Assembly: GCA_010093995.1 (NCBI GenBank)
Contig: ML992515.1
Location: 301,533 to 365,532 of the forward strand
DNA: 64,000 nt
Direction of reading: 5' to 3'
Origin: Elsinoe ampelina
Lineage: Eukaryota
The notes below the pieces were generated by a model. That model ran no database searches. It was not told the origin of the DNA and was given only the letters and a program-made list of their open reading frames with translations. A program made the translations under genes and the position numbers. The first letter of the stretch is position 1. Each line of letters begins with the position of its first letter. This document shows positions 8,105 to 48,000 of this stretch, one piece after another.

Positions 8105-8223
8105 AATAGTCTCTTGAACACGATGTAGCATGTCAGTCTCCGGAATGCAATCTCAGCTCTTGTCTGGCTTCGCTCGTGCGAACATGCTGTAGTGACAAGA
8201 ATGCTTGTATTTTCTGTCGTCTA

Positions 8224-23365: not shown

Positions 23366-26300
23366 ACTAATTAAACTACTAAGGTTATTACGTAACCTAG
23401 CCCGACGTTTACCTAGTTCTCTATCTTCTCTAGTAGCTCTACTCTAGAGACTATAGAGCGCGTAGGTTACTAGTAGACATATACTCTATACTACCCTCGG
23501 CTTTCGCTACGAAGTACATAGAGCACATAGAGTACGTAATAGAGAACATAAGTATATAGGAATAGTCCTTACCTTATATAAGTACTATAGTTAACTTTGT
23601 CTAGATAGCGAACACTAGTATTACTAAGGCTAGCCTTTATAATACTATCTAATTATACTTTATTATCTATAAGACATACCTTCTCTAACTCTTACCTTAG
23701 TGCTATACTACTATAGAAGTAGAACTATCTCGTTCTTAGCTTAGCTTAGACTACTAATATAGACTATATTTAGATAGTTCGTAACATTTTAACTACTCTT
23801 ACTATAGTATAGCACGCTACGAGGTTAATAAGTAACTCTCGCTCTAAGTTACTATTAGTATCTTTAATTACTAGTAAGCTAGGAAGACTTACTATTAACG
23901 ACATGTCTACTACTAGTTTAACCTTAGGTAAGCACTAAAGGTCTCTTAGTATAGGGGAAAAACAAGGTAAGCCTAAGTTAGAGGTAGAGCTCTTCTATAG
24001 AGACTACGCCTACTTAAGGCGCTTCCTTATTTAACTTAAGGCCTTCTTCGCTCTAGAGAGAGATAAATACGCTAATAACGTAGCAAAGGTTCTCTATACT
24101 AGGATACACCTTAAAGGCGCTACCTTCGAGTAGTTCGAGCCTTATATAAGTAGCTACCTAGATAGATAACTAAGTCTAGATACGAAAGCTATCTTTAAGA
24201 GCTTTAGTATCTTCTAAGCGAAGATTAAGTAAGTCTTTAATGTATCGGACAAAGAACGTATTACTATAACAAAGATCTAATAACTATAACAACGTAGGTC
24301 TATAGCCTAGTACTATTCCTAGTTCTAACAACTTATAATACACCTAGACTAGGATAATAGTGCTAAACATTTAGTATTCTACTAAGGACTAAGCGACTTA
24401 GTTAAAGACTAAATAATACTTAAGCTGCCTAATAGCCTCTAAGAACTAGTAGATACTATAATTACTATTAATAACTAACTTTATAAACGACATATAGAAC
24501 ATTATAGAGGATATAAAGCAAACACTAGATATACGCGTTTCTCCCGGAACTATAGAGACTCTATAGAACTTAACGCTATATACGAAGACTACCTCTTATA
24601 GGTAAAAGGCTAAGGTTATAGAGGAAAGTTCCTTAGTAGAAAAGAGAGAGAGAAGTATAGATAAGACAATTTATATTTTAAGTGTAAAAGACCTAGGCAT
24701 CGGGCTAGAGACTACTAGTAAGAGGCGCTAGCTAATAGATTATATATAATAGTTACTAGGCTAGTAGAAAAAAAGGCTAACACTACTATAGAAGACCTAA
24801 CAACCTTTAGTATAGGTAAGGAAATATAGAAGAAGTCTATAACGACTTAAGAGGCGAGAAAATTCTCTCTAGATATTACGCTTAATATCTCTATAACTAA
24901 TAATAAATAACAAAGCTAATACGTAACGCTATTATAGATAGCATATTATAATAACTCTTATTATATTTACTTATTAGAAAAGCAGGGATCTAGTTAGTTT
25001 CTATATAAGCTATCTAAGCGTAGGCAACTAACGAAATAGCTAGACTAGGAACCTAACCTAGAAGAGTTCTCTATAATTAGTAGTAAAACTAACTAACTAT
25101 AGAAGGTAGTTAGCGACAATTACTAGTATATAATTATCGAGACGAAGTATTAGAACGCAAGTGCTATATAATAATATAGTAGCCTTACCTTTAGCCCTTA
25201 TAGTAAACTATAGAGAAAGGCATATTATATGTCGCTCTAGAAATACACAAATCTAGATTACGAATAGTACTACTTTATCTACTTATACGATGTACTTAGA
25301 GAAGACACTATTAGTCTCGAATATACTATAGACTTCTTAGTAATCGAGATAGGTAGTACTATTCCCCGTAGCTAAGTATAAGAGTATACTTAGTGTAGCC
25401 TTAATAACTATAACTATACTAGGGACAGTAGCGACGTGTTATAAACTAGTAGGATAGCTAAAGCGTAGGGACGTTAGGACTAATTAAACTACTAAGGTTA
25501 TTACGTGACCTAGCCTAACGTTTACTTAGTTCTCTATCTTCTCTAGTAGCTCTACCCCGGGGACTATAGAGTATATAGGTTACTAGCGGACGTATACTCT
25601 ATATTGTCTCTAACTCTCGCTACGAAGCACATAGAGTATATAGAGTACATAGTAAAGAATATATATATATAGGAGTAGTTCTTACCTTATATAAGTACTA
25701 TAGTTAACCTTGTCTAGATAGCGAACACTAGTATTGCTAAGGCTAGCCCTTATAATACTATCTAATTGTACTTTATTATCTATAAGATATATCTTCTCTA
25801 ACTCTTACCTTAGTACTATACTACTATAGAAGTAGAACTACCTCGTTCTTAGCTTAGCTTAGACTACTAGTATAGGCTATATTTAGATAGTTTATAACAT
25901 TTTAACTACCCTTACTATAGTATAGCACGCTACGAGGTTAATAAGTAACTCTCGCTCTAAGTTACTATTAGCATCTTCGATCGCTAGTAAGCTAGGAAAG
26001 CTTACTATTAACAACATGTCTACTACTAGTTTAACCTCGGGCGAACATAGAAGGTCTCTTAGTATAGAAGGATAGAGTAGGCCTAAGTTAGAAGTAGAAC
26101 TCTTCTACGGGGACCGCGCCTACTTAAGGCACTTCCTTATTTAACTTAAAGCCTTCTTTACTCTAGAGAGAGATAAGTACGCTAACGACGTAGTAAAGGG
26201 ATATACCTTAAAGGCGCCGCCTTCGAGTGGTTCGAGCCCTATATAAGTAACTACCTAGACGGATAACTAAGCCTAGATATAAAGGCTATCTTTAAGAGCT

Positions 26301-27811
26301 TTAACATCTTTTAGGCAAAGATTAAATAAGTCTTTAATATATCTAATAAGAAGTATATCGCCGCGACGAAGATCTAATAACTATAACAACGTAGGTCTAT
26401 AGCCTAGTACTATTCCTAGTTTTAATAACTCGTAATACACCTAGACTAGAATAATAGTGCTAAACATTTAGTATTCTACTAAGGACTAAGCGACTTAGTT
26501 AAAGACTAAATGATACCTAAGCTACCTAATAGCCTCTAAGAACTAGTAGATACTACAATTACTATCGATAACTAACTTTATAAACGATATATAGAACGTT
26601 ATAGAGAATATAAGATAAACACTAGATATACGCGTTTCTCCCGAAACTATAGAGACTCTATAGAACTTAATACTATACACGAAGGCTACCCCTTATAGGT
26701 ATAAGGCCGCAGCTATAGAGGAAAGTTCCTTAGTGGAAAAGAGAGAGAGAAGTATAGACGAGACAATCTATATTTTAAGTATAAAAGACCTAGGCATTAG
26801 GCTAGGAACTACCGGTAAGGGGCGCTAGCCGATAGATTACATATAATAGTTGCCGGGCTAGTAGAAAAAAAGGCTAATACTACTATAGAAGACCTAATAA
26901 CCTTTAGCGTAGGCAAGGAAATATAGAAGAAGTCTACGATAACTTAAGAGATAGTAGAATCCTCTCTAGATATTATACTTAATATTTCTACAACCGATAG
27001 TAAATAATAAAGCTAACACGCGACACTATTATAGATAGTATATTATAATAACTCTTGTTATATTTACTTATTAGACAAGTAGGGATCTAGTTAGTTCCTA
27101 TATAAGCTATCTAAGCGTAGGCAACTAACGAAATAGCTAGACTAGGAACCTAACTTAGAAGGGCTCTCTATAATTAGTAGTAATAGTAACTAACCTTAGA
27201 AGGTAGTTAGCGACAATTACTAATATACGATTATCGAGACGAAGTATTAGGACGTAAGTGCTATATAATAATATAGTAGCCTTACCTTTAGCCCTTATAG
27301 CGCACTATAAGGAAAGGTATATTATATATCGCTCTAGAAATATATAAATCTAGATTGTAAATAGTACTATACTATCTACTTACACGACGTACTTAGAGAA
27401 GACGCTATTAGTCTCGAATATACTATAGACTTCTTAGTAATCGAAATAGATAGTACTATCCCCTATAGCTAAGTAAAAGAATGTACTTAGTGTAGCCTTA
27501 CTAACTATAACTATACTAGGGGCAGTAGCGACAAAGAGGAATATAACGAAGAATACACCGAATAACTATAATATAATAACATAGATAAGGACTTATCTAA
27601 CAACGACGACGACGACAACGACGTGCCACTACCGGGCAGACGACTTAAAGCATACCTTATAGGGATATAGAGGAATTATATAATAATATACACCTACTAC
27701 TAGAATAGGACATAATAAGACAAATCTACATAACTTGTTTTTGTCTTTAATACTAATACCTAGCTATACCCGGAAGAAATAGTTATACTAATACAGGTAT
27801 ATAATACTACT

Positions 27812-30800
27812 TATTAAGAATATAGCTCTCTCTAGATAGTTAGGCTAGGAAGTTACATAACCTATAGTTATATAATGCTAAGGCCTAGGGATTTATAAGC
27901 TGTTCTTTCTTCTAGTAGATAGACTCTTTAATTAATTAACTCGTCTATTACCTAACTAGTGTGCGGATTAGTTCTATATAATACTCTACCTCTAAACGTA
28001 CCTTCTGCTTAACAGGTTATAAGCCCGGAGCTTATAGCACTAGTATAGAATTATATGTAAAGTAGTTAAGTATCTACTTTATTAAAATTAGGCCGGATTC
28101 TCTAGTATACTCCTCCGTATCCCCTTTGTTATCCGATCCTAGACAGATTAGTAGAGGCGGTGTAAAGCGTAAAAGACTAGTTACTTAGTGCATTAAGCAA
28201 GGACTCCCTAACGTAGTCTAGCACAGGTTTCAACTCTATAAATGCACAACAGCTGCCGTTTATTAGCTGTTATTAACTAACTAAACGACACCTCCGACAA
28301 AACCTTTTCTCTCTAAGGCTAAGCTAGCCTTATTAACAAAACAATAATCTTAAAGGTTATCTATTAAAAGGAACCTAACCTTTATCTATTTATTTAAATT
28401 TTCTTCTCTCCTAGAACTTATCCTTAACTATAGAGGACAACAATACCTAATTAAGGCAGCTAGTGCTAACACTCTTAAAGGACAACTATAAGAAGTAGTT
28501 CTAATAGATAGAGCTCTAGCTAGTATCTAAGAAGGTGTTATAGACCCTTACTTCCCTTACTAAACCACTAGTAATAACTCTAGGGTTATTATTAGCTTCC
28601 TTATTCGACTCCTAGCACTCTCCTTAGTTAGTAGAGAAGAATAGTGCTGCCCTTTACTAGATCTATAGATATATCTTAGAAAGAGATTAAGAGATAATTT
28701 AGGAATAGTAGTAGGCTAAACTAGCTTAGGAGAAGCTAAAGAGTAAGTATACAAAGTAGACAGGTATATAGGCAAGACAATTATAGAGAGAGTTTGTTAT
28801 ATACACTATAAGTGATAAGACAACTATCTTAGAAGCCTAGTTATACCTAACTATATTAGGAAGGAGAATTAATAGATCTTTACAGGTTAAGTAATACTCT
28901 ACACTAACGACAAGAATCTAAACTCTGCTTACTACTCTTCTAGCTTTATAGTTATCTACAAGGGATGCTCTAGATACTTAGCTACACCTTAGTGTAGATA
29001 AGATCTATAATATCCTTAAGGAAAAGGAAGCCTAGAAGGGAGAAGGGGAATCTACTATATTTATAAGAGGTAGACCACAAGGAACTAGTAGGAGTTTAAC
29101 TTACATATATATCTTATGTAAGGAACCTAGACACTCTATATCTAGGTGCCCTTATCTCTAATAAGCTAAGAAGCATGTCCCCTCCTATAGGGTTACTAAA
29201 AGAGCTAGTCCTATAAGGAGACAGTTACCTAAACGCTAGGAGCTACTTAAACTTGTAAGAAAGCTTACTAAGAGGATAGATTCTCTAGAAGCAGCTAAGT
29301 TAAAGAGGAAAGGCAAAGCCTATCTAGCTACTAAAGGAGGATCACTATTAACATCTCTATCTCTACTACTAGAAGTTCTTTCTAGTACTAAAGAGCTTAA
29401 GACTACAGGTTCTACATTAGAGGTTTAAGGTAAGCTTCTACACTATTAGTAGATGCTTAACTCTAGAGCATCTAACTATATAATAGACAAGCTAACCCTC
29501 TTTAGGGGCCTATTAAGTAAGATACGCACTCGATAGATCTAGGTTAGGGGGGGTTACCTTTAGTTATAGTTAATAGGAACCGCTATTATTAAGACTAAGA
29601 AGGGAGATAAGATAAAGATATAGGCTCTTTATATACCTAATCTTAGTATTAATTTAGTCTTCTATTGTAAGCTATGTATAGATTTAGGAGTTTCTAGAGT
29701 TCTTAATTCAAATTCTTTTCTTGTCCTTAATTTATAGAAGTATCTACTACTTAAAGCCAGAATTCGAGCGGGGGTATATATTATCTAATCCCTCTTTAAG
29801 TAGTAAGCTAATCAAAAGCTGCATTCTAGATCTAAGCCTAGCTTAATTCTAGATCTAGCTAATTAGGACATAGCATTCCTTACTACTTAGCTAGTAATTA
29901 TATTACACACTAAGTACGTATATCTAACCTAGGATAAGTAATATAAGGATCTTATTAATTTAAGATCTAACAACTCTAAGACAGAGTACTAACTCTAGTA
30001 TAGGAGATTTGCTCACCTTAGAATTAAGAAGCTAAGGGATCTTTATAAGGTTATAACCCTTAAGAAGCCTATTAACTTAAACTATAATCTGTCGATCCTA
30101 TATAAGGTCTATTCCCTTACTAAAATAAGGAACAGAAGAGGCAAAACCTTATAGAGAAGACTAGAGGTTCTTTAGCTTGTCTATACTAATATCTATAGCC
30201 TAATTAAAGTAAGCAGGGAAGGGTTTAGATACTTCCTTAAGCTTATAGATAGCTATTTAAGGATGACATAGATTATACTACTTAAGATAAGAGATAAAGC
30301 CCTATAAAGGCTTATTAAGTAGAAGCTAAGGGTTAAGAAAGAGAGTAATACGAAGGTTAAGGTTACTAGGTTAGACAATGCTAGTAAGCTTAATAAGATC
30401 CTAAAGTAGTAGGAGCGCTAAGAAGGCATCTATTATATAACTACTAAGCTATATAATTCAATTTAGAATAGACTAGTAGAGAAAGGCATCTAAACCTTAG
30501 AGAATAGCATAAGAGCAATGCTTAAGGACTTAAAGATGCTAAATAAGTTCTAGCCTAAAGTAGTTTAGGTAGATACATATCTAAGGAACAGGACAGTAAC
30601 TAGACCTAAGATTAATAGTGAACAAGTTACACTAATTAAAGCCTATATAGGCATTAAGCTATTAGTTAATCATATTAGAGTCTAGGGCTATAAGGTATAT
30701 ACTTACATAAACCTAAAGTCCCTTCCTATATATAGAAGAAAAGACAAGCTTATAGATAGAGGAAGAGTAGGAGTATTTATTAGCTATATAGATAGAACTA

Positions 30801-33800
30801 ATAGGATGTACAAGATATAGGCACCTAATAGGAAGTTAGTAATTATGTCACTAAATATTAAGTTCTCTAAATTTAAGAAAGGTAGTAATATTAATCTTAG
30901 TATTAAGATTAACACTACGAGCAATTAGGCACCTATTAGGAGACTAGTTAGGAGACTAACCTAGATTCGAGCCCTACTTAATTCTAGGATAGACTAATTA
31001 AATTAGCCTATTTAGTAAGAAGCGCCTATAAGGAGAATCTTCTTATATATTAAGATCCTAAGGGTTAACCCTGTTAACTTTATAGATTTCTATCGTAGAG
31101 AAGAGCTAATAGTATAATCTAGACTATATAATTAAGTAGGCTAATCACTTAAGAGATTAAGAGATAAAGGGTCTAATAATAAAGAGCCTAAGGCTAAGTA
31201 TTATAGAGCGTTTATCGCTAAGTATATTAACTAGCAAGATAAAGATAATAAGATTACTATAATAGCCTCTGTTAAGTAATATGTCCTAATCCTAAGGGAC
31301 TATTATAAGGCTATTACTAATCTAATATAGGGAAGCAAGTGGCAGGAAGCAATTAATGCTAAGCTAAATACTCTAGGATTAAATAACACATAGAAAGAGG
31401 TTATTCCCCTAAAGGGATCTAACTTAGTAACATCTAAGTAGGTCTTTAATGTTAAGTATAACATAGATAGCTCTATTAAGAAGTTTAAAGCTAGACTTAT
31501 TACTAGAGGCTTCTTATAGAAGTATAGCATTAACTATAAAGACATATTTATACTAACAGTTAGAGTAGATACACTAAGATTGTTCTTTACTATCGTATAT
31601 ATACTTAACCTTAAGTGTTACTAGGTAGATGTTAATAATGCCTTTATAGAATTATTCCTTAGAGAGGTGATTTATATAAGGCTACTACCTAGACTTAAGG
31701 TCTAACCTAGTATTGCCTTCCGGATTCTTAGGAGCTTATATAGACTTAAGCAAGCTACTAGAGATTAGAATTAGCACTACATCTCTAAGCTCTTAAAGCT
31801 AGGCTTTACTTAGAGCAAAGTAGACCCCTGTCTTCTTATATACTATAACAAGAAGATTATTCTCTTAGTTTATGTTAATAACATACTATTTATAGCACAA
31901 AGCAAAGAGAACATCCGGTAGTTTAAGCAAGAGCTTAGTAGAACCTTTAAGATTAAGAATCTTAGTAAGGTTAGTAAAGTTCTTAGTATTAAAGTTACAA
32001 GGGACAGACAATAAGGAACCTTAAGGCTTAACTAAACCTACTATATAGATAATGTACTATAGAGGCTTAATATAACCTCTAACAAGGCTACTCTAACAAA
32101 GTAGCTAATAGACAATAAGCTTCCTTAGAGAGCTTAGACTAAAGATATAAGGTTTAGTAGAACTAAGTACTTATATGCTATTAGAAGCTAGATGTACCTT
32201 AGCACCCTAACAAGGCTAGATACTACCTTTGCCTTAGGAAGGCTTAGTTAGTTCATAGTAGATCTAATAGACAGCTATACTATCAAGATAAAGAAGATGT
32301 TAAGGTACATTAGATTAACTAGAGATCTAGGCATTATATTTAGAAGGAATAGCAATAAGACTCTTAAGGGATATTCTAATTCAGATTATACCTTAGATAA
32401 GACAGATAGAGTCTCTATCCTTAGATATATCTTTATTCTTGTAGGTGGTCCTATTAGCTAGATAAGTAGGAAGTAGAAGTCTGTTTTAACCTCTACTATA
32501 GAGGCTAAATATATAGCAATATACTCTTGTGCAAAGAGATTACAGTTCCTATCTTAGTTACTAAGAGATATAGGCTGTTATAAGATAGTTAGTTAGTTAC
32601 CTTAGAAACTAACTATAAAGGAGTCTTAGAAAGTAATAATAAGATCACCCTTTACTACTAAGATTAATAGTAATAATTAAGTAGCTCTTTCACTTATAAA
32701 GGAGCTATATACTTATAAAAGGGCAAAGCATATTAATATTGCTTACTACTACGTTAGGAGGCTATAGAGGGACTAGAGGATATAGGTTAAGTTTATAAGG
32801 ACAGTAGATATAGTTACTAATAGATTAACTAAGCCGTTATAAGGTTAGAACTTTACAAGATTTGTAAAGCAACTTAGCTTGTCATTAATCTAATAGCTTA
32901 TCTATAGGAGCTAAGTAGGAGTGTTAAGAATATAGCTCTCTCTAGATAGTTAGGCTAGGAAGTTACATAACCTATAGTTATTATTAACTTGTGTATAGGG
33001 AGGGAAAGAGATTTATTACTACCTAATCTACCTAAATTAAGTAGATTATAACTACATATATACTTAACCTAATAAACTAAGAGATAGCTAAATTAGAAGA
33101 ACTCCTTAATAGTAACAGAATAAGACAATAACTGTCTAAATTAATTATAAATTAGTGTAACTATTAATAAGTGCTTAGTTTAACCTTAGTTGCACTAAAT
33201 TAGGGTCCTTCTTAGCACTATAGCTCTTGCTAAGGTTAACACACCCCTTTACTAAATAGCTATAAGTCTATTATAGCTAGTTAGTAGACTACTAACTCGA
33301 GGGATAGCTATTATAAGAAGACCTTATACCTCCCTAGAGGAAGTGACTTAGTAAGTCTATCTACTAGTGTATCTACTAAGGGAGTCTAGTCTATAGAGAT
33401 AGGGCCTCCTAGAGTGATCTCTTACCTTAGCTAGTAATAGTAGATATCTACATAGCGTAGACGTGTGTTAAGCTTCTTAATTAGATTAGTAATAAGGCTA
33501 ATAGTTTGCTAGTTGTCACACTAAATACTAACATTCCTTAGTAGATAGATAGCGGCTATTAGCCTCCTCTACTACATAGCTTACTTAGTAGTCTCTATAA
33601 GAGTAAGTAGTTTAGCCTCTATACTAGAAGTAGTGATAGTTAGCTACTTTATAGCCTTCTAATCTATAGAGCCTTAGAACAGCTTAAATAGATACCCCTA
33701 AAGGCTCTTCCTTAAAGAGTAACTTCTAAAGCTAGCATCTAATAAGGCTTAGAAGATTAGTAGTAGTATTAAGCTATTAAAGGTAAGGGCTAGATCTCTA

Positions 33801-36800
33801 GTCTTATAGAGATACTAGATCACTCTATTCGCTAGCCTTTAGTATGTTAGTAAAGGATTTGTTAGATACTCTAACAATCTAGAAGTAGCAAAGGCAATAT
33901 TAGGCCTAGTAATAACAGCTGCAAAATTAATAGATCCTATCTTCTACTAATATAGATAGATCTCCTATAGTAATACTTAGCCTTTAGAGGGCTAGAGCAT
34001 TTTAACTAGAAGTAGTAATAAGACTAGCCTTATTAGTTCTATAATGAACTTGCTATACATCTACTAGATATACTAAGCTTAACTAAGCTATAGCTTCTTA
34101 GTTAGCCTATCCCTTATAATCTAGATAGCTAGGAACTAGCTTAGATTCCCTAGAACCTTTATCTTATACTTAGCACATAGGGCTACAATAATAGTATTAG
34201 CCTTGCCCTTATGCTTCTTAAGGTACATAATAGTGATATTATCCACAAAGAAGAAGATTATTACCTTAGGGGTTAGCTAGAGGCATAGAGCCTTAGAGGC
34301 CTAAGTAAATCTAAGATTCTTTAGTATAGTAGTGAATTCTGCATACTAGAGAGCTAGTGCTTGTTTAAGGCTATAGAGTGCCTTCTTTAGTAGGAGGATT
34401 GCATTAGATAATGCTATACTAGGACAGTCCTTTATAAGCACCTCTAGTATAAGCTTAAATCTAGGTAGGATAGTGTAGTAGGTTGTCTTATTAATAGGAC
34501 TATTAACATAAGCATTAATAACATCTATCTAGATAGCCTCTATATCCTTATAAGCAAGGAGAGCTATAAGCATTTTAAAAATCTTAGTAGCTAATGTAGC
34601 TATATAAGTCTCTAAATCTATAGATTAAAGATTACCCCTTATATAAAGCCTTGCCTTGTGTTTAATAACTTCTCCTTTATTATTAGTCTTATATATAAAG
34701 ACCTAAGTTAGTAGCACTAGCTTCCCTATAGCTTAAGATATAAGTATAATAGTCTAAGTATCTTTTAAATAGAGGGTAAGCAATTCTACCTTTATTGCTT
34801 GTTAGAATTGCTCCCTATAAGGATAAGCTTATAGCTCCCTAATGTTAGCTAGTAGTAGAGGTAGATTATCTCTTAGTTCTAGCTTTAGCTAGATTAGCTT
34901 CATTAATAGATAAGCATTAAAAGCTTAATAATATCTAGGAGCCTCCTAAGGCTATATAAGACTAGTAATATAGGCCTACCTTCTTAGTTTCCTAGTCCTT
35001 CTTATAGTAAGGATATACTTAGGCAATAGGTTAGCTAACCTTATAGTAATCCTTCTTCTAGGCTATTTAGGCTCCTTAGTTACCCCTTTAGCTAGGGCTT
35101 CTACCTTACTCCTTATAGTTTTAGCTTTAGATAGAGGTAAAGGCTATATAGCTATTAAGGGTAGAGAGGCTAGAGTATTATAGAACTGTTCTAGTGATAT
35201 AGCCTCCTAGATCTAAGCCGGGTTTAGCTCTAGGGTCTATAACTATAATAGTAGACTATAATTATCTAGTAGAGGTAATAGAGCCTATTAAGCCTGTAAC
35301 TATAATAATAAACTATAATTATTTAGTTCCTTAGTTAGAATCTGCTAAACTAGATTCTAAACTAGATGCTAAACTAGATGCTAAACTAGATTCTATAGTA
35401 TAGATAGGCCTTTAGTTACCCTTTCAGTTTGAGGTATATTCTCCTTAACTTCCTATAGTAGTCTTAGTAGATTAAGTAGTCTAATAGGCTAAGGCTAAGG
35501 CTGCTCCTCTAGCTTGTAGAACTAAGTCTTATTAAATCTAATATCCCTAGTTCTAATGACCTTCTTTAAGGCTAGTATAAAGATCCTAAATATGTTAGTT
35601 AAGTTATATCTAACTAGATAACTAATATGTGCTCTTAGTGTAAGCTTATTACTACTTATGACAAAATAATCTAGGGTATAAGCCTTGCATCTAAGTAGTC
35701 TAAGATAGGATATAGATAGAGGGCATCTATAAACTAGCTTAAAGAGAGTCTTCTAGTTAAGCTTCTTAAGTGGAGTTCTATTTATTAGATAGGCTACTAA
35801 TCTATATAGTTTAGAGTGTAGTTCCCTTAGAAGATTAGTAAAGATAGCTACTGCCCTTGCTCTCCTTAATAGCATAGACCCTATCCTTTTACTATAACTA
35901 TTCTATGCTAGAGTATATAGAGTAGATAGCTCTCTTTAGATACCTTTACTATCTAGGAAGATAGTAAATCTAAGGCTAAAGGCCCCTTTATTGTCACTCC
36001 TAACGAATCTAACCTTAAAGCTAAGATTGCTTTTAATATAAGTAATTATCTTAATATAGATTTTATTAATCTTATATCTATAAGCATAACTGCTTATAAG
36101 GTAATAGTTAGTGGCCCTACAGGCAAAATAGCTTATATACCTTGCCTTATTATAGCTAGTAAACCTGTTAATAATAATGTTAAAGGTGATCCTTTTAAAG
36201 GGCTTAGTTATAACAATCTTAGTGTTAGGGCTCCTTAAGATAAGCTTCTAAGCATTTAATAGCTTACAAGTCTAATATAGTGACCTAAGATAAATTAGTT
36301 AATACGAGTTAGACTTAGTTAAAGTTAGTTCACCACTAACTGTAGCAGTTAGGAGGTAATTAATAGACTCTATACTTAGATAGCCTATAACTTTATACTA
36401 GGATTAATTAGTCCTTGTTATAACTAAGGTAAATACTAATAGATAAGGACCTCTAGTGCCTCCTATAGCTATAGTAACAGTATAAGGAGCTTTAGAGTTA
36501 TCCTCTACTATATATTAATTATGCTTTAGAGTTACTAAGAAGAGTACCCTCCCTTTATGATTAATCTCTATAGTTTAAGTATTCTAGTAGACTCCACCCT
36601 TTAGGAACCTCCTAAGGCTAACTAGATTAGTTATTATTAATGGCACATAAGCCACCTATGTGAGTTAGATAGTTACTAGCTTTCCCCTATAGATCGCTAT
36701 AATAGTAATCGATCCTTAACTCTTAATAGTAAGTAAGGTATTACTATAGAACATTTGCTTATAAAGTTCTATAAGTCTAGTAACCTTATATCTATCCTTT

Positions 36801-38458
36801 ATAGTGTAATTACAGATGTAATTAGTTGCTCTAGAATCTAGAATCTATAAACTTAAGATGTTACTAGTGGCTAAGATAAATACTAAGTGTAATCCAACAG
36901 TTATAGCTGTGTTAATTAGCACTAGTAGGGATAACCCCTTATAAAGGTAAGCCTCCTTAGTAAGGATAGCTTTAACCTTCTCCCTTAAGGCCTTATTATT
37001 AAGCCTTTGCTTAACCTCCTTAAGAGTTTATTAGTTTAGTAACTATCCTTCTAGCCTTAGATGCTTATTTAAGTAATAGCACTTGCTCTACTTATGCCGC
37101 TTCTAGTACACACATCTAGGCTCCCTAGTAGGACTAGGCTTCTCTTATAAGGAGTCCTTAGTAGCTACAGGGAATGCTATTACTCCCTTGCTAGCCTTTA
37201 TGCTACTATATAGCTTATAAAGTTTATAAAACTGTCTAAACTTAGTAATTAACTCGAGCATTAATAGCAGGGTTAGTAAATCTAGATCAATAAGATATTT
37301 GTTAGCAAATGCTAGTTTAGTCCTTAAGATAGAGAGCAAGAAGTCTCTCTATAGCCTTAAGCCTTAAGCTTCTAGTAGGTTGTAATTCCTAGCCTTATCT
37401 ATAACCTCTTCCTATTACTAAAGCTAATAGTCTATATTCTGTAATAATAGACTAGAGAGTTGTCTCCTCTAGAGAGCTTTAACTTCTAGCTAGATTATAG
37501 CATTAGATAGTGCAAATCTGTTCTTTAATGCTCTAAGGATAGCCTATAGATAGGGATCTCCCTCTAGTTAGATAACTATAAGAACTTATAGTGCAATTAA
37601 TAACTGAATAAGGCTAGCTAGATCTGCTAAGGCCTTATGCTGTTTGTTATGCTAAGCTTACTCCTCCTTGTATATCTAAAAGAGTACTAAGAAGTTAGAA
37701 TCTAATATATCTAGCCTCTAAGGCTTAGGGAGCCCTTCTAGCTTAACTATCTCCTAGGGATTAACAATGTGCTAGATCTTAGTGTTTAAAGCTCTAGTCT
37801 TAATAATATATAGCTAGCTAGCCTATTCAGCTAATGTAGCAAGAATAATAGGTGTTCTAGCTGTTAATATATTAGTATCTATAGTTGTTTATCTCTTTAT
37901 TAACACCTAAATCCTGTAGTTGTAGTTAAGGCAGTTCTTAACAGATTCTAATGCTTAAAAAGCGAGATAATAGAGAATTAACTAATAGATAGAATAGGAA
38001 GACAACTAAATACACTACTTATGCAGGGGTAGTTATACCGGGCTTATAACTGTTAACTTATATGTAGGGACGGAAAGAGATTTATTACTGCCTAATCTAC
38101 CTAAATTAGGTGGATTGTAACTACATATATACTTAACCTAATAAACTAAGAGATAGCTAAATTAGAAGAACTCCTTAATAGTAACAGAATAAGACAATAA
38201 CTGTCTAAATTGATTATGAATTAGTGTAACTATTAATAAGTACTTAGTTTAACCTTAGTTGCACTAAATTAGAGTCCTTCTTAGCACTATAGCTCTTACC
38301 GAGGTTGATAGTCATGTAATGCTAAGGCCTAGGGATTTATAAGCTGTTCTTTCTTCTAGTAGATAGACTCTTCAATTAATTAACTCGTCTATTACCTAAC
38401 TAGTGTGCGGATTAGTTCTATATAATACTCTACCCCTAAACGTGCCTTCCGCTTAACA
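27812..38458 (+). mobile_element. Ty1/Copia element 1 (5' LTR 27812-28014; 3' LTR split 32922-32981 + 38316-38458), inserted in Gypsy-A copy 2
   Basis: TSD ctact (27807-27811 / 38459-38463). PBS ggttataagcccgg after 5' LTR. De-RIP motifs WMLDSGASDH ~29450, KWVF ~31436, KARL(V)ARGF ~31488, YV(DD) ~31871, (A)DGLTK ~32815, in protease-integrase-RT-RNase H order. Confidence 0.92.
32982..38310 (-). mobile_element. Ty1/Copia element 2 (5' LTR 38310-38051, 3' LTR 33241-32982, 260 bp each), inserted into the 3' LTR of Copia-1
   Basis: TSD gttat (32977-32981) / gtcat (38311-38315). On the minus strand: PBS gttataagcccgg next to 38051, PPT aaagggggtg next to 33241, WILDSGA relic ~36830, RT FFFVD(D) ~34240. 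Confidence 0.92.
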
Positions 38459-41400
38459 CTACTTAGTATAACTAGTAGAGAATTATCGGACTTTATAGTT
38501 ACTAAGGGACTTAGGCGCTAGAAGTTTACCTTACTATATTAAGTAGCGATAAGACATAACTTGCCTAATAGATATAGTACTAATAGTAGATACGTGTAGG
38601 AAGGGATTAGCTACTTATCTAAGGAGCTATAATAACAAAAAACTAGCTAGTTGTTACCTAATAAGGCAAGACGATAATACTAGCTAAAGCCTTAGTATAA
38701 TAAAGATCTATACGTTAAACTACTTTATACTAGAAGTTGAAATATAAGAGAGTAAGGTAAGAGTAATAATAGATTCGGAAGCTAACTATAGCTACGTCTC
38801 TATAATAGTTACTAATTAGCTTAAACCTTATTAATACTAGAAGGAGTTACCTTACCTACTTACTATAGCGGATAGAACCCCTATAGGGAAGGATAGGAAA
38901 GTTACTTAGGAACTACGAAATGTTATAATTAAAATTAAAACATATATAGAAAAACAATCGATCGATATAGTAGACATATAGTACGATATAGTACTTAGCA
39001 TAGACTAGCTTTAATAACACAATCTAGACGTAGACTAGATTAAAGGAACACTCGAATTCCCTAAGTATAATTATAAGACGTAGGGAGCATAATTAGCTCT
39101 ATAGATACTAACTATAAGAATAGTATAGGTATAACTAATAGTTAAAGCTATCACTAGCATAAGCAACTAAGCACTTCCGCCGGAATATAAAGACTTTAAG
39201 GACTTATTTAAAGAAAGAGAAGGCATTATAGCCTTACTCTAATATAAACTATAGAATTATAAAATACTCTTTAAAGAGGGTAAATCCCTAATACACTATT
39301 AAGGTCTTATACTACTATCGAAATAAGAGGAGAATGTCCTTAAGAACTATATCGATAAGTACTTACTTAAAGGATTTATACAACTATTAAAATTACCTAT
39401 TACGTACGGAGTGCTTTTTACACCTAAAAAGGATAGGACGTTACAAATATACATTAATTACTAGAAACTTAATACACTTACTAGGAAGAATTACTATCCC
39501 TTACTAAGGATTAACAAACTTTAAGACTAACTACTTAGAGCTAAATAGTTCACTGTAATTAATATTAGGGACGCCTATTATTAAGTACAAATAAAGAAGA
39601 GTAAGGAGTAGAAGACAGCTTTTAGGACATAATAGAGTCTATATAAGTACCTCGTTATACTCTTTAAGTTAACTAACGCTCCTATAACCTTCTAAGAGTT
39701 AATTAATAACACTCTATAAGAATACCTTAACAACTTTATCTTAGTATATTTAGATAATATTATTATCTTCTTAAAGATATACGATAAATATATAGAACAT
39801 GTTTATAAAGTGCTATAGAAACTAAAAGAGAAAGACCTACTAGTAAAACTCTCTAAGTGCAAGTTCTATAAGTATAAGATACAATTTCTAAGCTATGTTA
39901 TATCTACTAATAGTATCGGACCTAATCTAAAGAAGATTAAGTTAGTAAATAACTAGCTAGAACCTATAATAGTTAAGAAGGTTTAAGCGCTACTAGAGTT
40001 CTTTAACTACTACTATAAGTTTATTAAAGGATTCTCTAAGGTAGCTACGCTAATATCTAACCTTATAAAGAAAAAAACCAGATTTGTCTTTAATAAGAAA
40101 TATAGGTAGGCCTTTAAGGAGCTAAAGCTTAGACTTATAATAGCACCTGTCCTAGCACTCTTTAACCTAGACTAATAAGCACTACTAGAAACAGATGCCT
40201 TAGACTTTGTAATAGAAGCGTATCTAGCGTAGAAGGACGCGGAAGAATAATACTACCTAATTATATACTACTTACGAAAAATGACTAGATCTAAACTTAA
40301 CTACGACATATACAATAAGGAGTTACTTACAATTATAGAGGTATTCTATAAATAGAAAGTATACCTAGAAGGAACAACCTCACCTATATAAGTCTATACC
40401 GACTATAAGAACCTATTATATTAGACAATAACTAAGGTTCTTAATAGACGACAAGTGCGATAGTTAAAAACACTTACAAGCTATAACTTTTAGATCTACT
40501 ATATTAAGGGATTAGAGAATAGTAGAGTAGATACTCTTAGCCGACAACCGGATTACTTAAAGAATATAACAATAATAGAGGCCTCTATACTAAAGTAGTA
40601 AGATAGCGCTCTAGTCTATAAGCACCCGAAGGTAAAGTAGTTATATAGCCTTACCTAGAAGCTTACGTAAGAATAGAAGAAAGAAGTTATTTAAATATAC
40701 TATAATAACCTAATAGTAGGACATAGTAGGATTAATAAGACTATTAAACTTATTACATAAAACTACCTATAGAAAGAACTTCGAAACAATATTAAGATAT
40801 ATATTGCTATATACGATACATGCTATAAGTCTAAGCACTTACGACACAAGCTATATAGCCTATTATAACCCTTACTACTACTAAATAAACTATAGCAATT
40901 AGTTACGATAGACTTTATAGGACCTTTACTACTATTAGAAGAACCTCTTATAGGTGTAAAGTATAATAGTATTCTAGTCCTAGTAGATAGGTTTACGAAG
41001 TATTACTACTTTATACTATATAAGACAATAGTAACTGCCGAGGATATAGCCTTTACCTTCCTCTAAATAATTGTTTTATAATATAGAGTACTACGAGACC
41101 TAATAACTAACAGGGATAAGCTATTTACATCACAATTCTAGTAATTATTTATAGATCTACTAGGAGTTAAACATAAGCTATTAACCTTCTTTTATTTACA
41201 AACGGACAGATAAACTAAATAGGTAAATTAAGTACTAGAGTAGTACCTATAATGCTACCTAAACTATAAGCAAGACTTATAGGTAATGCTATTACTACTT
41301 ATAGAGCTTGCTATTAATAATAGAAAGTTAGCAAATAGAATTTTACTATTCTACGTAAACTATAGAATACACCCGGATCTATACTACGACATACTCGGAA

Positions 41401-42013
41401 TTAAGCTAATATCTAAGGACACTAACATACTAGTAGCTAACATTAAGAAACTATATAACTAGCTATACTATAATATAGTATTTATATTACAAAGAATAGC
41501 AGATTTTGCTAACTAGAAGAGAATTACGGGACTAATTCTATAGGAGGGAGAGAAAGTTTACCTCCTTAGTAGAAATATTAAAACGAAACGACTAAGTAAG
41601 AAACTTAACTACACTAAACTAGGACTCTTTAAGATCCTAGAAAAGAAAAATAAGAACGTATATAAACTAGAACTACTAAGACATATAAGGATCTATCTAG
41701 TCTTTTATATATTACTACTAGAGAAAGCACTATAGAACACTATACCCGGACCTATTAAACTAGATAAAGAAATATAGGAGCTACGGTATAAGATCGAAAG
41801 GATTTTACATTATAAATCTATAAGGGGAAAATGTTACTATCTTATCTACTAGAAAGGACATTAGTATAGTAAGGCAACATAGGAACTAGAAGAACACCTT
41901 ACCTCGTAAGTAATCCTAGATTACCGAATTAAGAACCTATCCTAAGTAAACTAACTAGATAGACCTAGCACTTCTAATACTAAACAAAAACGAGAATGCC
42001 TAAGGAAGATCGC

Positions 42014-42562
42014 TTAGCTAATAGAAGCACCTTAATCATTGCTAAATAGAGAACCCTAGTCGAAGTTAGGCATAAATAATTACTAGTCCTATAGTAGGAT
42101 AGGATCTACCGATAATAGTATTTCCTTCTACTCTAGGACTTAAATACAAGTCTCCTCTAGAGAGATTACTTTCTCCGCCTTATCCTCTAACTTTTATATC
42201 TCTTCGCGCAGGTGAAGCTTATTGCCTATAGCTCTTTAACAAGCCTCTTTTGCCTTTTTATAAGCTTCTTTAGCTTTCTTTCTAGTAGCCTTAGCCGCGA
42301 CTAATTCCTTTCGTAAACAAATATACTTAGACTAGAGACGCTACTATTTCAATTTTGTTACTTAAATATTATAACTCGAGTAGTTACTTACGACATACTA
42401 GCTATAAATACCTAACTAAATATAGACTTTGTAGTCTAGCTCTTTTAACTTATAACAAGAGTAAGCTTATAGCATATTAGTTCTAAATAATTTAATAAAC
42501 TCCGAGAGGTTCTTTTATATAGATATACTAGATTTACTATGCCTTTAATAACTAGGAGACAT
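42014..42562 (-). pseudogene. RIP-destroyed antisense ORF inside Gypsy-A copy 2: Zn2Cys6-like cluster plus coiled coil (3' end approximate)
   Basis: ATG at 42562. TAY codons (RIP products of TGY) at spacing x2-x6-x8-x2-x7 over 42463-42371, then a K/E/A/R-rich helical tract. Collinear copy at 47457. Confidence 0.65.
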
Positions 42563-45500
42563 GTTTAGTACATAGCGCGTAAGAATAAGAAAGAATACTT
42601 ACTTATTAGGACAACTCGATTAAGGGAGGAAAGTAATATTATAAACTAGTAGGACAGCTAAAGCGTAGAGATGTTAGGACTAATTAAACTACTAAGGTTA
42701 TTACGTGACCTAGCCCGACGTTTACTTAGTTCTCTATCTTCTCTAGTAGCTCTACCCTAGAGACTATAGAGTATATAGGTTACTAGTAGACGTGTACTCT
42801 ATATTGCTCCCGACTCTTGCTACGAAGTATATAGAGTATATAGAGTACGTAGTAAAGAATACATATATATAGGAGTAGTTCTTACCTTATATAAGTACTA
42901 TAGTTAACCTTATCTAGATAGCGAATACTAGTATTACTAAGGCTAGCCCTTATAATACTATCTAATTGTACTTTATTATCTATAAGATATACCTTCTCCG
43001 ACTCTTACCTTAGTACTATACTACTATAGAAGCAGAACTACCTCGTTCTTAGCTTAGCTTAGACTACTAGCGTAGGCTATGTTTAGATAGTTTATAATAC
43101 AACGAAGAGGAATATACTAAACGACTATAGTATAATAATATAGAAGAGAACTTATTCGACAACGACGATATACTACTACTAGGTAGACAACTTAAAGTAT
43201 ACCTTATAGGGATATAGAGGAATTATATAATAATATATATCTACTACTAGAATAGGACATAACAAGATAAATCTATATAACTTACTTTCGTCTTTAATAC
43301 TAACGCCTAGCTATACCTAGAGGAAATAGTTATACTAATATAAGTATACGACACTACTTAGTATAACTAGTAGAGAATTATTAGACTTTATAGTTATTAA
43401 GAAACATAAGCACTAGAAGTTTACCTCGCTATATTAAATAGCAATAAGACACAACTTGCCTAATAGATATAGTACTAATAGTAGATACGTGTAGAAAGGG
43501 ATTAGCTACTTATCTAAGGAGCTACAATAACAAAAAACTAGTAAGTTATTACCTAATAAGGCAAGATAATAATACTAGCTAAAGCCTTAGTATAATAAAG
43601 ATTTATATGTTAAATTACTTTATACTAGAAGTCTAGATATAAGGAAATAAGGTAAGGGCAATAATAGATTTAGGAGCTAACTATAGCTACGTCTCTATAA
43701 CAATTGCTAATTAGCTTAAACCTTATTAATATTAGAAGGAGTTACCTTACCTACTTACTATAGCAGATAGAACTCCTATAGGAAAGGATAGGAAAGTTAC
43801 CTAGGAACTATAAAACGTTATAATCTAAATCAAAACACATACGGAAAGATAATTAATTAATATAGTTAATATATAGTATAATATAGTACTTAGCATAGAC
43901 TAGCTTTAATAATATAATCTAGACGTGGACTAGATTAAAGAAACACTTGAATTTCCTAAGTGTAATTATAGAACATAGGGAGTATAATTAGCTCTATAGA
44001 TACTAACTATAAAGATAGTATAGGTACGACTAATAGTTAGAGCTATTACTAGCGTAAGTAATCGAGTACTTCCGCTAGAATATAAAGACTTTAAGGACTT
44101 ATTTAAGGAAAGAGAAAGTATCGTAGCCTTGCCCTAATATAAACTATAGAATTATAAAATACCTTTTAAAGAGAGTAAATCCCTAATACACTATTAAGGT
44201 CTTATACTACTATTAAAATAAGAGAAGAACGTTCTTAAGGAATATATTAATAAGCACTTACCTAAAGGATTTATACGACTATTAAAATTACCTATTACGT
44301 ACGGAGTGCTTTTTATACTAAAAAAGGATAGAACGTTATAAATATACATTAATTACTAGAAACTTAATACACTTACTAGGAAGAATTGCTATTCCTTACT
44401 AAGGATTAACAAACTTTAAGACTAACTACTTAGAGCTAAATAGTTTACTATAATCGATATTAGGGACGTCTACTATTAAGTATAAATAAAGGAGGGCGAG
44501 GAGTAGAAGACAGCTTTTAGAATATAATAGAGTCTATACAAGTACCTCGTTATGCCCTTTAGGTTAACTAATGCTCCTATAACCTTCTAAGAGTTAATTA
44601 ATAACACTCTATAAGAATACCTTAACAACTTTATCTTAGTATATTTAGATAATATTATTATCTTCTTAAAGATGTACAATAAATACGTAAGATATATTTA
44701 TAAAGTACTACGGAAACTAAAAGAAAAAGACTTACTAGTAAAGCTCTCTAAGTGTAAGTTTTATAAATATAAGATATAATTTCTAGGCTATATTATATCT
44801 ACTAATAGCATTAGACCTAATCTAAAGAAGATCGAGTTAGTAAACAACTAGCCGGAACCTATAATAGTTAAGGAGGTTTAAGCGCTACTAGGATTCTTTA
44901 ACTACTATTATAAATTTGTTAAAGAATTCTCTAAGGTAGCTACGCTAATATCTAACCTTACAAAAAAGGAAACTAGCTTTGTCTTCGACGAAGATTGTAG
45001 GTAGGCCTTTAAGGAGCTAAAGCTTAGGCTTATAATAGCACCTATCCTAGTACTCTTCGACCTAGACTAGTAAGTACTACTAGAAACGAATGCCTCGGAC
45101 TTTATAATAGAAGCGTATCTAGCGTAGAAGGATATAGAAGAATAACGCTGCCTAATTATATACTACTTACGAAAAATAACTGGACCTAAACTTAACTACA
45201 ATATACACGATAAAGAGTTACTTATAATTATAGAAGTATTCCGTAAGTAGAGAGTATACCTAGAAGGAACGACCTTACCTATATAAGTCTACACCGACTA
45301 TAAGAACCTATTATATTAGACAATAACTAAGGCTCTTAATAGATAATAGGTTCGATAGTTAGAAATACTTATAAGCTACAACTTTTAGATCTACTATATT
45401 AAGGAATTAGAGAATAGCGAGGTAAACGCTCTTAGCCGACAACTAGACTACTTAAAGAATATAACAATAATAGAGGCCTCTATACTAAAACAGTAAGACA

Positions 45501-46908
45501 GCGCTTTAGTTTATAAGTACCCGAAGGTAGAGTAGTTATATAGCCTTACTTAGGAGCTTATATAAGAACAGAAAAAAGAAGTTATTTAAATACACTATAA
45601 TAACCTAATAGTAGGATATAGCGGGATTAATAAGACTATTAAACTTATTACGCGAAACTACCTCTAGAAAGAACTCTAAAATAATATTAAGACGTATATC
45701 GCTATATACGATATATGCTATAAGTCTAAACACTCTCGATATAAACTATATAGCCTACTATAACCCTTACTACCACTAGATAAACTATAGCAATTAGTTA
45801 CGATAGACTTTATAGGACCTCTACTACTATTAGAAGAGTCTCTTACAGGTGTAAAGTATAATAGTATTCTAGTCCTAGTAGATAGGTTTACGAAGTATTA
45901 CTACTTTATACTATATAAGACAATAGCAACTACCGAGGATATAGCCTTTACCTTTCTCCAAATAATTGTTTTATAACATAGAGTACTACGAGACCTAATA
46001 ACTAATAGAGATAAGCTATTTACGTTATAATTCTAGTAATTATTTATAGACTTACTAGGAGTTAAATATAAGCTATTAACCTTCTTTTATCCGTAAACGG
46101 ATAGATAAACTAAACGGGCAAATTAAGTACTAGAGTAGTACCTATAATGCTACCTAAACTATAAGTAAGACTTATAAGTAACACTACTACTGCTCGCGAA
46201 GCTTGCTATTAATAATAGAAAGTTAGTAAATAGAATTTTACTATTCTACGTAAACTATAGAATATACCCGGATCTATACTATAATACACTTAGAATTAAG
46301 CTAATATCTAAGAATGCTAATATATTAGTAGCTAACATTAAGAAACTATATAACTAGCTATACTATAATATAGTATTTATATTATAAAGAATAGTAGAGT
46401 TTACTAACTAGAAGAGAATTACGAGACTAATTCTATAGGAAAGGGAGAAAGTTTACCTCCTTAGTAAAAATATTAGAACGAAACAACTAAGTAAGAAACT
46501 TAACTATACTAAACTAGAACTCTTTAAGATCCTAGAAAAGAAAAATAAAAACATATATAAACTAGAACTACTAAGACATATAAGGATCTATCTAGTCTTT
46601 TATATATTACTACTAGAGAAAGCACTATAGAATACTATACCCAGACCTATCAAACTAGATAAAGAAACATAGGAGCTATAGTATAAGATCGAAAGGGTTT
46701 TATGTTATAAACTTATTAAAGGAAAACGCTACTATCTTATTTACTAGAAGGGACATTAGTATAGTAAAGCAATATAGGAACTAGAGGAGTATCTTACCTT
46801 ATAAGCAATTCTAGATTACTAGAATAAGAACCTATCCTAAGTAAACTAACTAGATAGACCTAGTACTCCTAATACTAAATAAAAACGAGAATGCCTAAGG
46901 AAGGTCGC

Positions 46909-47457
46909 TTAGCTAATAGAAGCACCTTAATTGTTGCTAAATAGAGAACTCTAGTCAGAGTTAGGCATAAATAATTACTAATCCTATAGTAGGACGGGAT
47001 CTACTAACGATAGTATTTCCTCCTACTCTAGGACTCGAATATAGATCTCCTCTAGAGAGATTACTTCCTCTGCCTTATTCTTTAATTTCTATATCCCTTT
47101 ATATAGACGAAGCTTATCGCCTATAGCTCTTTAATAAGCCTCTTTTGCCTTTTTATAAGCCTCTTTAGCTTCCTTTCTAGTAGTCTTAGCTATAACTAAT
47201 TCCTTTCGTAAACGAATATACTTAGACTAGAGACGCTACTATTTCGATTTTATTACTTAAATATTATAACTCGAGTAGTTACTTACGACATACTAGCTAT
47301 AGATACCCGACCGAATATAGACCTTATAATCTAGCCCCTTTAATTTGTAACAAGAATAAGCCTATAGTATATTAGTTCTAAATAGTTTAATAAACTCTAA
47401 GAGATTCTTTTATATAGATGTGCTAGATTTACTATGCCTTTAACAACTAGGAGGCAT
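46909..47457 (-). pseudogene. RIP-destroyed antisense ORF inside Gypsy-A copy 1: Zn2Cys6-like cluster plus coiled coil (3' end approximate)
   Basis: ATG CCT CCT at 47457. Same frame and same six TAY positions as copy 2, with less-mutated codons (AAG GGG; ATT CGG TCG GGT ATC = IRSGI). Confidence 0.65.
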
Positions 47458-48000
47458 ATTTAGTACATAGCGCGTAAAGATAAGAAGGAATACTTACTCG
47501 TTAGGACAACTCGATTAAAGGAGAAGAGTAATATTACAAACTAGTAGGATAGCTAGAGTATAGGCGTAGAGACGTTAAGACCAATTAAACTGCTAAGGTT
47601 ATTATATAACCTAGCCTGACGTTTACTCGGTTCTCTATCTTCTCTAGTAGCTCTACTCTAGAGACTATAAAGCGCGTAGGTTACTAGTAGATATATACTC
47701 TATACTACTCTCGGCTTTCGCTACGAAGCATATAAAGCATATAGAGTACGTAATAAAGAACACAAGTATATAGGAACAGTCCTTACCTTATATAAGTACT
47801 ATAGTTAACCTTGTCTAGATAGCGAACACTAGTATTACTAAGGCTAGCCTTTATAATACTATCTAATTGTACTTTATTATCTATAAAACATACCTTCTCT
47901 AACTCTTACCTTAGTACTATACTACTATAGAAGTAGAACTACCTCGTTCTTAGCTTAGCTTAGACTACTAACGTAGACTATGTTTAGACAGTTCGTAATA

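Follow-up and report, generated by a model that had tools for sequence, protein, structure and literature searches.

An antisense gene in RIP-inactivated Gypsy retrotransposons of Elsinoe ampelina, most likely encoding a zinc-cluster regulator of the element

Plant Gypsy elements are known to carry antisense open reading frames (ORFs) between pol and the 3′ long terminal repeat (LTR), and the fungal case on record is brtn; the published accounts state their function to be unknown (PMC7264820, PMC8365987, PMC4227169, PMC5987419). A 64,000-nucleotide stretch of the Elsinoe ampelina genome (assembly GCA_010093995.1, contig ML992515.1, positions 301,533 to 365,532; hereafter the window) raises the same question. 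Two copies of a Gypsy element heavily damaged by repeat-induced point mutation (RIP), copies A and B, each contain a minus-strand frame between the chromodomain and the polypurine tract (PPT)/3′ LTR. A first-pass annotation, made from the letters alone, had read these frames as the fossil of a gene for a DNA-binding regulator. Were they once a gene, and if so, what did its product do? The features concerned are the following.

42014..42562, minus strand: antisense accessory gene, copy A (182 codons plus stop; RIP-inactivated, 18 internal stops)
46909..47457, minus strand: antisense accessory gene, copy B (RIP-inactivated, 16 internal stops)
42371..42463, minus strand: six-Cys cluster region, copy A (codons 34-64, all six positions now TAY)
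47266..47358, minus strand: six-Cys cluster region, copy B
42383-42385, minus strand: codon 60 of copy A (Asn), which covaries with an LTR heptamer described below
42113..42361, minus strand: predicted long helix/coiled-coil region, copy A (about codons 68-150, bounds from alignment to a modelled homologue)
42014..42112, minus strand: acidic-aromatic tail region, copy A
41849..41902, minus strand: candidate 54-nt intron in the 3′ untranslated region of the antisense RNA, over chromodomain codons (recognised by pattern only in the window's family)

Both frames start with ATG (at 42562 and 47457) and are collinear and free of indels up to a stop at codon 183 (42014 and 46909), in agreement with the ~180 collinear codons first described. 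In each, Tyr codons 34, 37, 44, 53, 56 and 64 give the spacing C-x2-C-x6-C-x8-C-x2-C-x7-C, again as described. With 18 and 16 internal stops, respectively, neither frame is open today. The antisense-gene region is present in the genome in at least 93 copies. In 31 of them, the first 495 nt contain 193 polymorphic columns with transitions vs. 7 with transversions, and no indels (0/31). We examined 41 copies, found by searching with the antisense-gene region (these 31 and 10 more chosen by similarity to an intact protein), and the collinear frame was present in all of them.

The annotation had remarked that no Cys codon survives as TGY, and named Tyr or His in less-mutated copies, or a broken frame, as evidence against a gene. 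No such evidence against a gene emerged. The remark is correct for the two window copies but not for their sisters, which keep TGY at codons 34 (5/41), 37 (9/41), 56 (5/41) and 64 (1/41), i.e. at four of the six positions; CAY was found at none of the six in the 41 copies. Codons 44 and 53 are TAY in 41/41, and exact-pattern searches of the genome for TGY, or for His or Arg, at these two codons found none, with TAT at codon 53 in 93 of 93 matches. The least-mutated copy, L060 (G000:C86:3293-3811, on a small contig), differs from copy A by transitions only (106/106) and has 5 internal stops. Its GC content is 47% vs. ~31% elsewhere and it is far less RIP-mutated, which suggests a later insertion or fewer rounds of RIP. 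Six codons that are stops in 31/31 copies are sense in L060, showing that saturation of a site is normal in this family and that TAY at codons 44 and 53 is not evidence for an ancestral Tyr; for these two codons it is only the homologues described below that argue for Cys. A pattern search of the genome for an undamaged copy gave 4 matches, none at a known family copy, and a search for a second family with a divergent homologue led back to the places of the same family.

Could the motif have been read by chance into Tyr codons, which are common in RIP-mutated DNA? Copy A has ten Tyr/Cys codons in its first 75, Pfam gave no match for either window frame, and a word-based homologue search with 15 damaged copies returned nothing at E≤1. 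Copy A without any repair (X at stops) nevertheless matched four intact proteins of ~200 amino acids in a phmmer search of 1.84 billion representatives (E 5e-12 to 1e-6), all with Cys in exact register with its six Tyr. A fifth match, to a 3,873-amino acid repetitive protein, was dropped. Together with the TGY codons kept in sister copies, this refutes the chance explanation. Copies A and B are dead, RIP-wrecked copies of a conserved antisense accessory gene.

Profile searches extended the family to 67 and then 251 relatives (120 of the 251 listed), and 148 homologues were stored. The pattern C-x2-C-x6-C-x8-C-x2-C-x6-8-C occurs in 139 of these, the other nine being truncated or having one Cys-to-Tyr change; the proposal of six ancestral Cys is thereby upheld. 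Named members among the matches listed come from Cercospora, Elsinoe, Elasticomyces, Oleoguttula, Aulographum and Lithohypha; no Botrytis or Sclerotinia protein was among the named matches listed, most matches having no name. The viral and prokaryote collections that we searched contained no relative.

The prediction that intact homologues would lie antisense in Gypsy 3′ regions was borne out. At 25 metagenome loci, the 3′ end of pol lies directly downstream on the opposite strand in 19 (14 of 20 distinct elements), and five of the six others have ≤321 bases of downstream sequence. The complement of the PPT is usually 65-100 nt upstream of the antisense ATG in these relatives. One of them, L038, is intact, and its antisense protein shares 40% identity with that of L060 (E 5e-44). 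In the least saturated intact pairs dN/dS was 0.06-0.07, with dS near saturation (only pairs of 52-99.5% identity were used), showing strong purifying selection on the antisense gene.

These data bear on whether the gene is a captured fragment of a host transcription factor, carried as neutral or host-serving cargo. In UniRef, three of the named members go under 'Zn(2)-C6 fungal-type domain-containing protein', and since Zn2Cys6 domains are fungal host domains, the ultimate origin of the gene probably was a capture. A partial homologue at L058 (8001-8273), with no pol within 6.8 kb downstream, also fits; it may be a solo remnant or a host-domesticated piece. As cargo, however, the gene would hardly keep a fixed position and orientation in elements whose integrases are only 30-65% alike, nor would it be under strong purifying selection. 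Moreover, no host paralogue was found above weak scores, and Cercospora has three near-identical copies on three contigs. We consider cargo very unlikely.

The region of one intact relative, L049, was present in 22 leaf-litter RNA runs, possibly from one campaign. In contigs of 3 of 3 RNA runs examined, a 62-nt intron is skipped 19 bases past the stop of the gene; it is likewise absent from assemblies L046 and L048 and kept in L047 and L049 (removed in 2/4). A further run, X23, outside these three RNA runs, showed no splice joint. The skipped piece reads GTATGT..GCTGAC..TTTAG on the gene strand and CT..AC on the pol strand. As the splice signals are canonical on the antisense strand only and the intron is removed, a spliced antisense RNA exists: in this relative, the antisense gene is transcribed as its own spliced RNA. 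Looking up to 250 nt from the stop, we saw an intron-like pattern (loosened by one letter after inspection of L060) at 7 of 10 loci when reading the antisense strand and at 0 of 10 when reading the sense strand (shuffles 1.0). In L049 (region 1303-1373), the antisense intron overlaps the last pol codons, meaning that pol and antisense transcripts converge and overlap; the two stops overlap or nearly touch in L036, L038, L040 and L049. The idea that the gene is transcribed antisense from the 3′ LTR has thus gained a spliced RNA; the promoter itself probably lies on the U3/PPT side.

We modelled an intact homologue, P0001 (pLDDT 84 for the full length and 88 for the domain). In the model, residues 17-31 form a helix, the Cys region contains two short ones, residues 75-159 form another helix and the tail is loose. 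Alignment and models together give an anatomy of a basic N-terminal helix, a six-Cys cluster, a coiled coil of ~80 residues and an acidic-aromatic tail. Net charge is +9.4 up to Cys6 and -10.6 over the last 60 residues, an L-x-P-x-T-W..F-W-type tail occurs in 120/124 members, and the loop signature K/R-V-H-x-R-S-G has its His in 136/139 and its Gly in 139/139. In a Foldseek search with the domain model, all rows listed in ranks 1-24 were Zn2Cys6 proteins, including Leu3, Gal4, Pho7, Hap1, Put3, Ppr1, Lac9, AlcR and Cep3, which suggests a zinc-cluster-like fold, though no row is significant by itself. The protein may bind zinc. A sequence search of the PDB gave weak rows only (Leu3 E 0.42-0.91, Lac9 E 0.27-0.78) amid coiled-coil noise, and the ESM Atlas with P0001 gave three Ascomycota clusters at ≥0.90, Zn_clus rows appearing only at a TM score of ~0.3.

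The coiled coil suggested beside the cluster from the damaged copies is recovered in the 75-159 helix, and a homodimer model scored 0.49 vs. 0.00 for the best control (contact agreement ≥61%, pLDDT ≥67). Solved dimers pass the same mark in 21 of 30 cases and monomers in 0 of 23 (in eukaryotes, 17/29 and 0/30). This supports dimerisation through the coiled coil. The modelled contacts are antiparallel (88 with 123-130), which sets the two clusters far apart.

A candidate binding site for such a dimer is present in the U3 regions of the LTRs. The heptamer TG(A/C)TC(A/T)G occurs 70 times in the 4,759 nt of 20 distinct U3 regions (shuffles 5.4, maximum 13) and only 8 times in 30,862 nt of internal element DNA, with two or more sites in 15/20 loci. 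The sites form inverted arrays, forward before reverse (74:10), mostly between a TCACGTGA box and the TATA box. The TCACGTGA box, which we take to be an E-box, i.e. a host site of the basic helix-loop-helix/basic leucine zipper (bHLH/bZIP) type, is found in 9/20 U3 regions vs. 0.1 expected and adjoins the heptamer arrays. We also tried CGG as a target and rejected it: triplets were not enriched (135 vs. 149), and the pairs CGG-N3-12-CCG and CCG-N-CGG occurred 13 times vs. 7.1 (5/300 shuffles) and 7 times vs. 7.1, respectively. The LTR that follows copy A has altered versions of the same layout.

42637..43099, plus strand: LTR after copy A, 463 bp
42701-42708: altered E-box in its U3
42767, 42795, 42832 and 42841: four altered heptamer sites in its U3
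42864-42872: TATA-like run in its U3

The sixth base of the heptamer is never mixed within one LTR. At the 16 loci with at least one exact heptamer, this base pairs with the residue four positions after the fifth Cys (Cys5+4): Gly in 9/9 elements with ..CAG sites and Asn or Asp in 7/7 with ..CTG sites. The pairing is the best of 266 columns (Fisher 8.7e-5), with three changes on the tree. Of 108 columns, Cys5+4 alone splits perfectly, pol has no such column among 118 (11 loci), and random labels yielded a perfect column in 2 of 3,000 trials. Family-wide, the residue is G in 104, N in 33, D in 1 and S in 1 of 139. The window's family is of the Asn type (codon 60 is AAC in 31/31 copies and in L060), and its U3 sites are CTG-type; among the intact homologues, L049 is of the Gly type and L044 and L052 are of the Asn type. 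Four loci had no exact sites and were omitted: L045 and L055 (both with an incomplete LTR), L059 and L035. Of these, L059 is RIP-damaged and has Ser at Cys5+4 and eight degenerate CAG-type sites.

Taken together, the data lead us to favour, with moderate confidence, an LTR-binding regulator that is encoded by the element and acts mainly as an activator. The gene is the third one carried by a lineage of ascomycete Ty3/Gypsy chromoviruses, and it runs opposite to pol in the space before the 3′ LTR. Its own mRNA, spliced as seen in L049, would start on the U3/PPT side and extend toward pol. The product would be a miniature transcription factor of ~190-210 amino acids with a divergent, presumably metal-binding Zn(II)2Cys6-like cluster, which most likely would dimerise through its coiled coil and bind the inverted TG(A/C)TC(A/T)G arrays between the E-box and TATA box of the element's own U3. 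Recognition of the sixth heptamer base would fall to a residue where the cluster's second helix ends, and LTR transcription would be altered, more probably upward, via the acidic tail. The original proposal of an element-encoded LTR regulator has thereby acquired circumstantial evidence in the form of the heptamer arrays and the residue/base covariation.

Several observations weigh against this reading, the first group of them concerning the protein. Zn(II)2Cys6 domains have the consensus C-x2-C-x6-C-x5-12-C-x2-C-x6-9-C, and Gal4 reads CGG with a Lys at C2+4 (K18) and has a loop Pro (P26). Here, the C2+4 residue is N in 47, G in 37, K in 23, S in 14 and R in 9 of 139, with no fixed Lys, and the common loop residues of the 139 homologues do not include Pro. 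The Zn_clus profile check put forward with the first reading failed: no member (0/59) reaches the Pfam gathering score of 21 bits (9.7 and 12.1 bits), the best E is 0.012, and only 2/59 are at E≤0.05. The best Foldseek E is only 0.096, so that no fold match is significant on its own, and VIA gave Z scores of 2.1-2.8 (1cld, rmsd 1.7 over 33 residues). The pass of the dimer model may be a generic memory of coiled coils. Of the GAL4-type cluster first proposed, the six-Cys spacing stands, but the Zn_clus profile, the fixed Lys and loop Pro are missing and the dimer model is antiparallel; the protein is Gal4-like but not a canonical Gal4/PF00172 member.

The second group concerns the RNA and the LTR. 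Evidence for splicing comes from one element family, in contigs of runs possibly from one campaign, with no start site or level. The heptamer and its labels were defined on the very loci tested. About 80 bp separate the gene from the LTR, and at that distance the two are inherited together through linkage alone. When the set was thinned to 10 loci that are less closely related, an exact permutation test gave p 0.03-0.24, depending on the criterion. Two of the three independent N/CTG lineages, L056 and L060, are partly RIP-mutated and have two exact sites each. Lastly, L035 has the gene (Asn at Cys5+4) and lacks the heptamer. Its LTR has GTTCCT(A/G)/(C/T)AGGAAC-type repeats in the same forward-then-reverse layout.

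If the pairing were only a hitchhiking of linked sites, the protein could be an accessory factor that does not read the heptamers and serves integration targeting, chromatin tethering, anti-silencing or particle/RNA handling, and the inverted arrays could act as RNA hairpins or bind a host factor. The lack of canonical CGG-reading residues and the weak p after thinning agree with this, as do the invariant K/R-V-H-x-R-S-G loop, a potential protein or RNA contact, and the antiparallel dimer model, whose ~70 residues fit a bridge or tether. Hitchhiking does not readily explain, however, why Cys5+4 alone splits perfectly among 108 equally linked columns, nor why a residue in the cluster's second helix, two-state family-wide, changed three times with the base; the acidic-aromatic tail likewise suits a role in transcription. 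We regard such a factor as unlikely, though by no means negligible.

An LTR-binding protein might instead be a repressor or buffer for copy-number control, e.g. by occluding a host factor at the adjacent TCACGTGA box, with convergent antisense RNA adding to silencing. The heptamers do lie right beside this conserved box, and the antisense RNA overlaps the end of pol. Against repression, the conserved acidic-aromatic tail to us resembles activation motifs, and the element is fully covered in RNA runs dominated by the spliced form, an observation that shows coexistence only. Antisense RNA as a double-stranded RNA brake is discussed in PMC7264820. A repressor seems to us rather improbable.

Under the activator reading, gene and LTR would form a lock-and-key cassette, exchangeable between pol lineages. 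We compared gene and integrase at ten loci (L035, L036, L038, L040, L043, L047, L050, L052, L057 and L059), and the distances gave no support for co-inheritance of the two (Mantel 0.06, p 0.39; when the window was included, 0.33, p 0.08). Gene distances independent of integrase distances are consistent with exchange of the 3′ cassette, and suggest that it may have been swapped between pol lineages. L035 and L040 are 65% alike in integrase and 41% in the gene, L040 and L047 53% and 71%, respectively.

How does this gene compare with known systems? Closest by description is brtn, which runs antisense in the Boty-like (BcGypsy1) elements of Botrytis cinerea and Sclerotinia. These too are fungal Gypsy elements with a chromodomain and an extra antisense gene between pol and the 3′ LTR (PMC8365987, PMC7264820, PMC4227169). 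The accessible text of these accounts describes no zinc cluster, intron or function for BRTN, and the comparison is by description only; the two may or may not be the same family. In the open-access literature, which leaves out most subscription papers, we found no zinc-cluster antisense gene, intron or LTR site described for fungal Gypsy elements. Position and orientation are also shared with the plant aORF-3R genes (maize Grande gene23, RIRE2, Retand and PvRetro13), of which the Grande gene is reported to have its own promoter and a nuclear product; according to the same source, the plant proteins have no clear database similarity (PMC7264820), whereas the fungal product has a recognisable DNA-binding-type fold, as modelled, and candidate target sites. 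The window's gene fits the aORF-3R description, being antisense, between pol and the 3′ LTR, and present in most family copies.

With the Zn(II)2Cys6 factors (Gal4, Leu3, Ppr1, Hap1, Put3 and Pho7; PF00172) the antisense protein shares six Cys spaced x2/x6/x8/x2/x6-8, two short helices and a following coiled coil. It differs from them in its sub-threshold Pfam scores, the lack of a fixed C2+4 Lys and of the loop Pro, its invariant His-x-Arg-Ser-Gly loop and extra N-terminal helix, a length of only ~200 amino acids with no middle homology region, and a candidate site that is not CGG; set beside Gal4 as we know it, the modelled dimer is antiparallel with clusters far apart. Human T-lymphotropic virus 1 (HTLV-1) has an antisense product, HBZ, which is a bZIP protein. 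The likeness, by analogy only since fold and host are unrelated, is that of an LTR element whose 3′ end drives a spliced antisense gene, and of a small product that dimerises and regulates; the HTLV-1 antisense promoter lies in the 3′ LTR (cited in PMC7264820). Lastly, we saw weak DUF3716 (PF12511) matches over the Cys region in 7/59 members (best E 8e-5). According to PMC8232023, DUF3716 is found in genes of the Zymoseptoria REP9 DNA transposon, so the likeness is that of a transposon-borne Cys region; the transposon class is another and most members are unmatched. Several classes of fungal transposon may carry small Cys-cluster proteins.

The window copies lie in a 34-kb AT-rich block (~22.5-56.4 kb of the window) with a strong RIP signature (TpA/ApT ~2), flanked by genes of ~52% GC; the DNA is fungal-type. 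Within the block are tandem and nested pieces of one Gypsy family, with gag, the order protease, reverse transcriptase, RNase H and integrase, a chromodomain at the end of pol, a PPT and LTRs, as in Ty3/Gypsy chromoviruses. Gag (PF03732, E 1.6e-6) is at 26018-26902, and the Chromo matches of intact relatives are strong (L038 E 3e-18, L049 E 8e-13).

38456..42013, plus strand: pol region, copy A (89% identity to copy B over 4.65 kb)
41787..41909, plus strand: chromodomain at the pol end, copy A (Pfam PF00385 E 0.029, under the gathering score; RIP-damaged)
42622..42633, plus strand: PPT, copy A
43901..46852, plus strand: pol, copy B (reverse transcriptase, RNase H, integrase, SH3), RIP-inactivated, 50% identity to the intact pol of L038
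47517-47528, plus strand: PPT, copy B
47532..48000, plus strand: LTR after copy B, 469 bp

Before the pol region, at 23366-27532, the same family contributes two LTR+gag units in head-to-tail order, which are 88% alike. The second pol-bearing unit, at 43099, has no leader or gag and carries pol B, then the LTR at 47532-48000. Paired LTR+gag units and a gag-less unit look like the outcome of LTR-LTR recombination or of a tandem insertion. Between gag and pol, the element is split by ~10.6 kb of different repeats, also RIP-mutated (27816-38456); this interruption, which consists of nested insertions, contains direct repeats at 32984-33237/38053-38306, 27864-28014/38308-38458 and 27814-27871/32924-32981. 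Outside the block, nucleotide-sugar dehydratase/reductase-like and glycosyltransferase-like ORFs lie close together at 5345-9510, and a SNF2-type ATPase with a bromodomain-like end is at 12628-16443; by eye, all are ordinary host genes.

The antisense gene is a variant of the known aORF-3R kind, most likely a zinc-cluster regulator encoded by the element. What antisense extra ORFs do in LTR retrotransposons is called an open question in PMC7264820. This family offers a testable answer: its small protein has a DNA-binding-type fold, as modelled, its LTR contains a candidate site, and two natural states of the pair provide a contrast in specificity. We advance a broader picture more tentatively, as plausible but short of probable: a widespread lineage of fungal 'complex' retrotransposons, each of which would encode, on a spliced antisense mRNA, a sequence-specific transcription factor of its own that acts as an antiparallel dimer over inverted U3 arrays through a one-residue/one-base code, with gene and LTR as an exchangeable switch and solo LTRs as potential host enhancers. 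If true, some fungal retrotransposons would regulate themselves like complex retroviruses, and the zinc clusters would have a branch with a non-CGG site. Hundreds of fungal gene models now called 'Zn(2)-C6' or 'hypothetical' would then belong to transposons, and LTRs scattered over the genome could bring host genes under the control of a factor that the element encodes.

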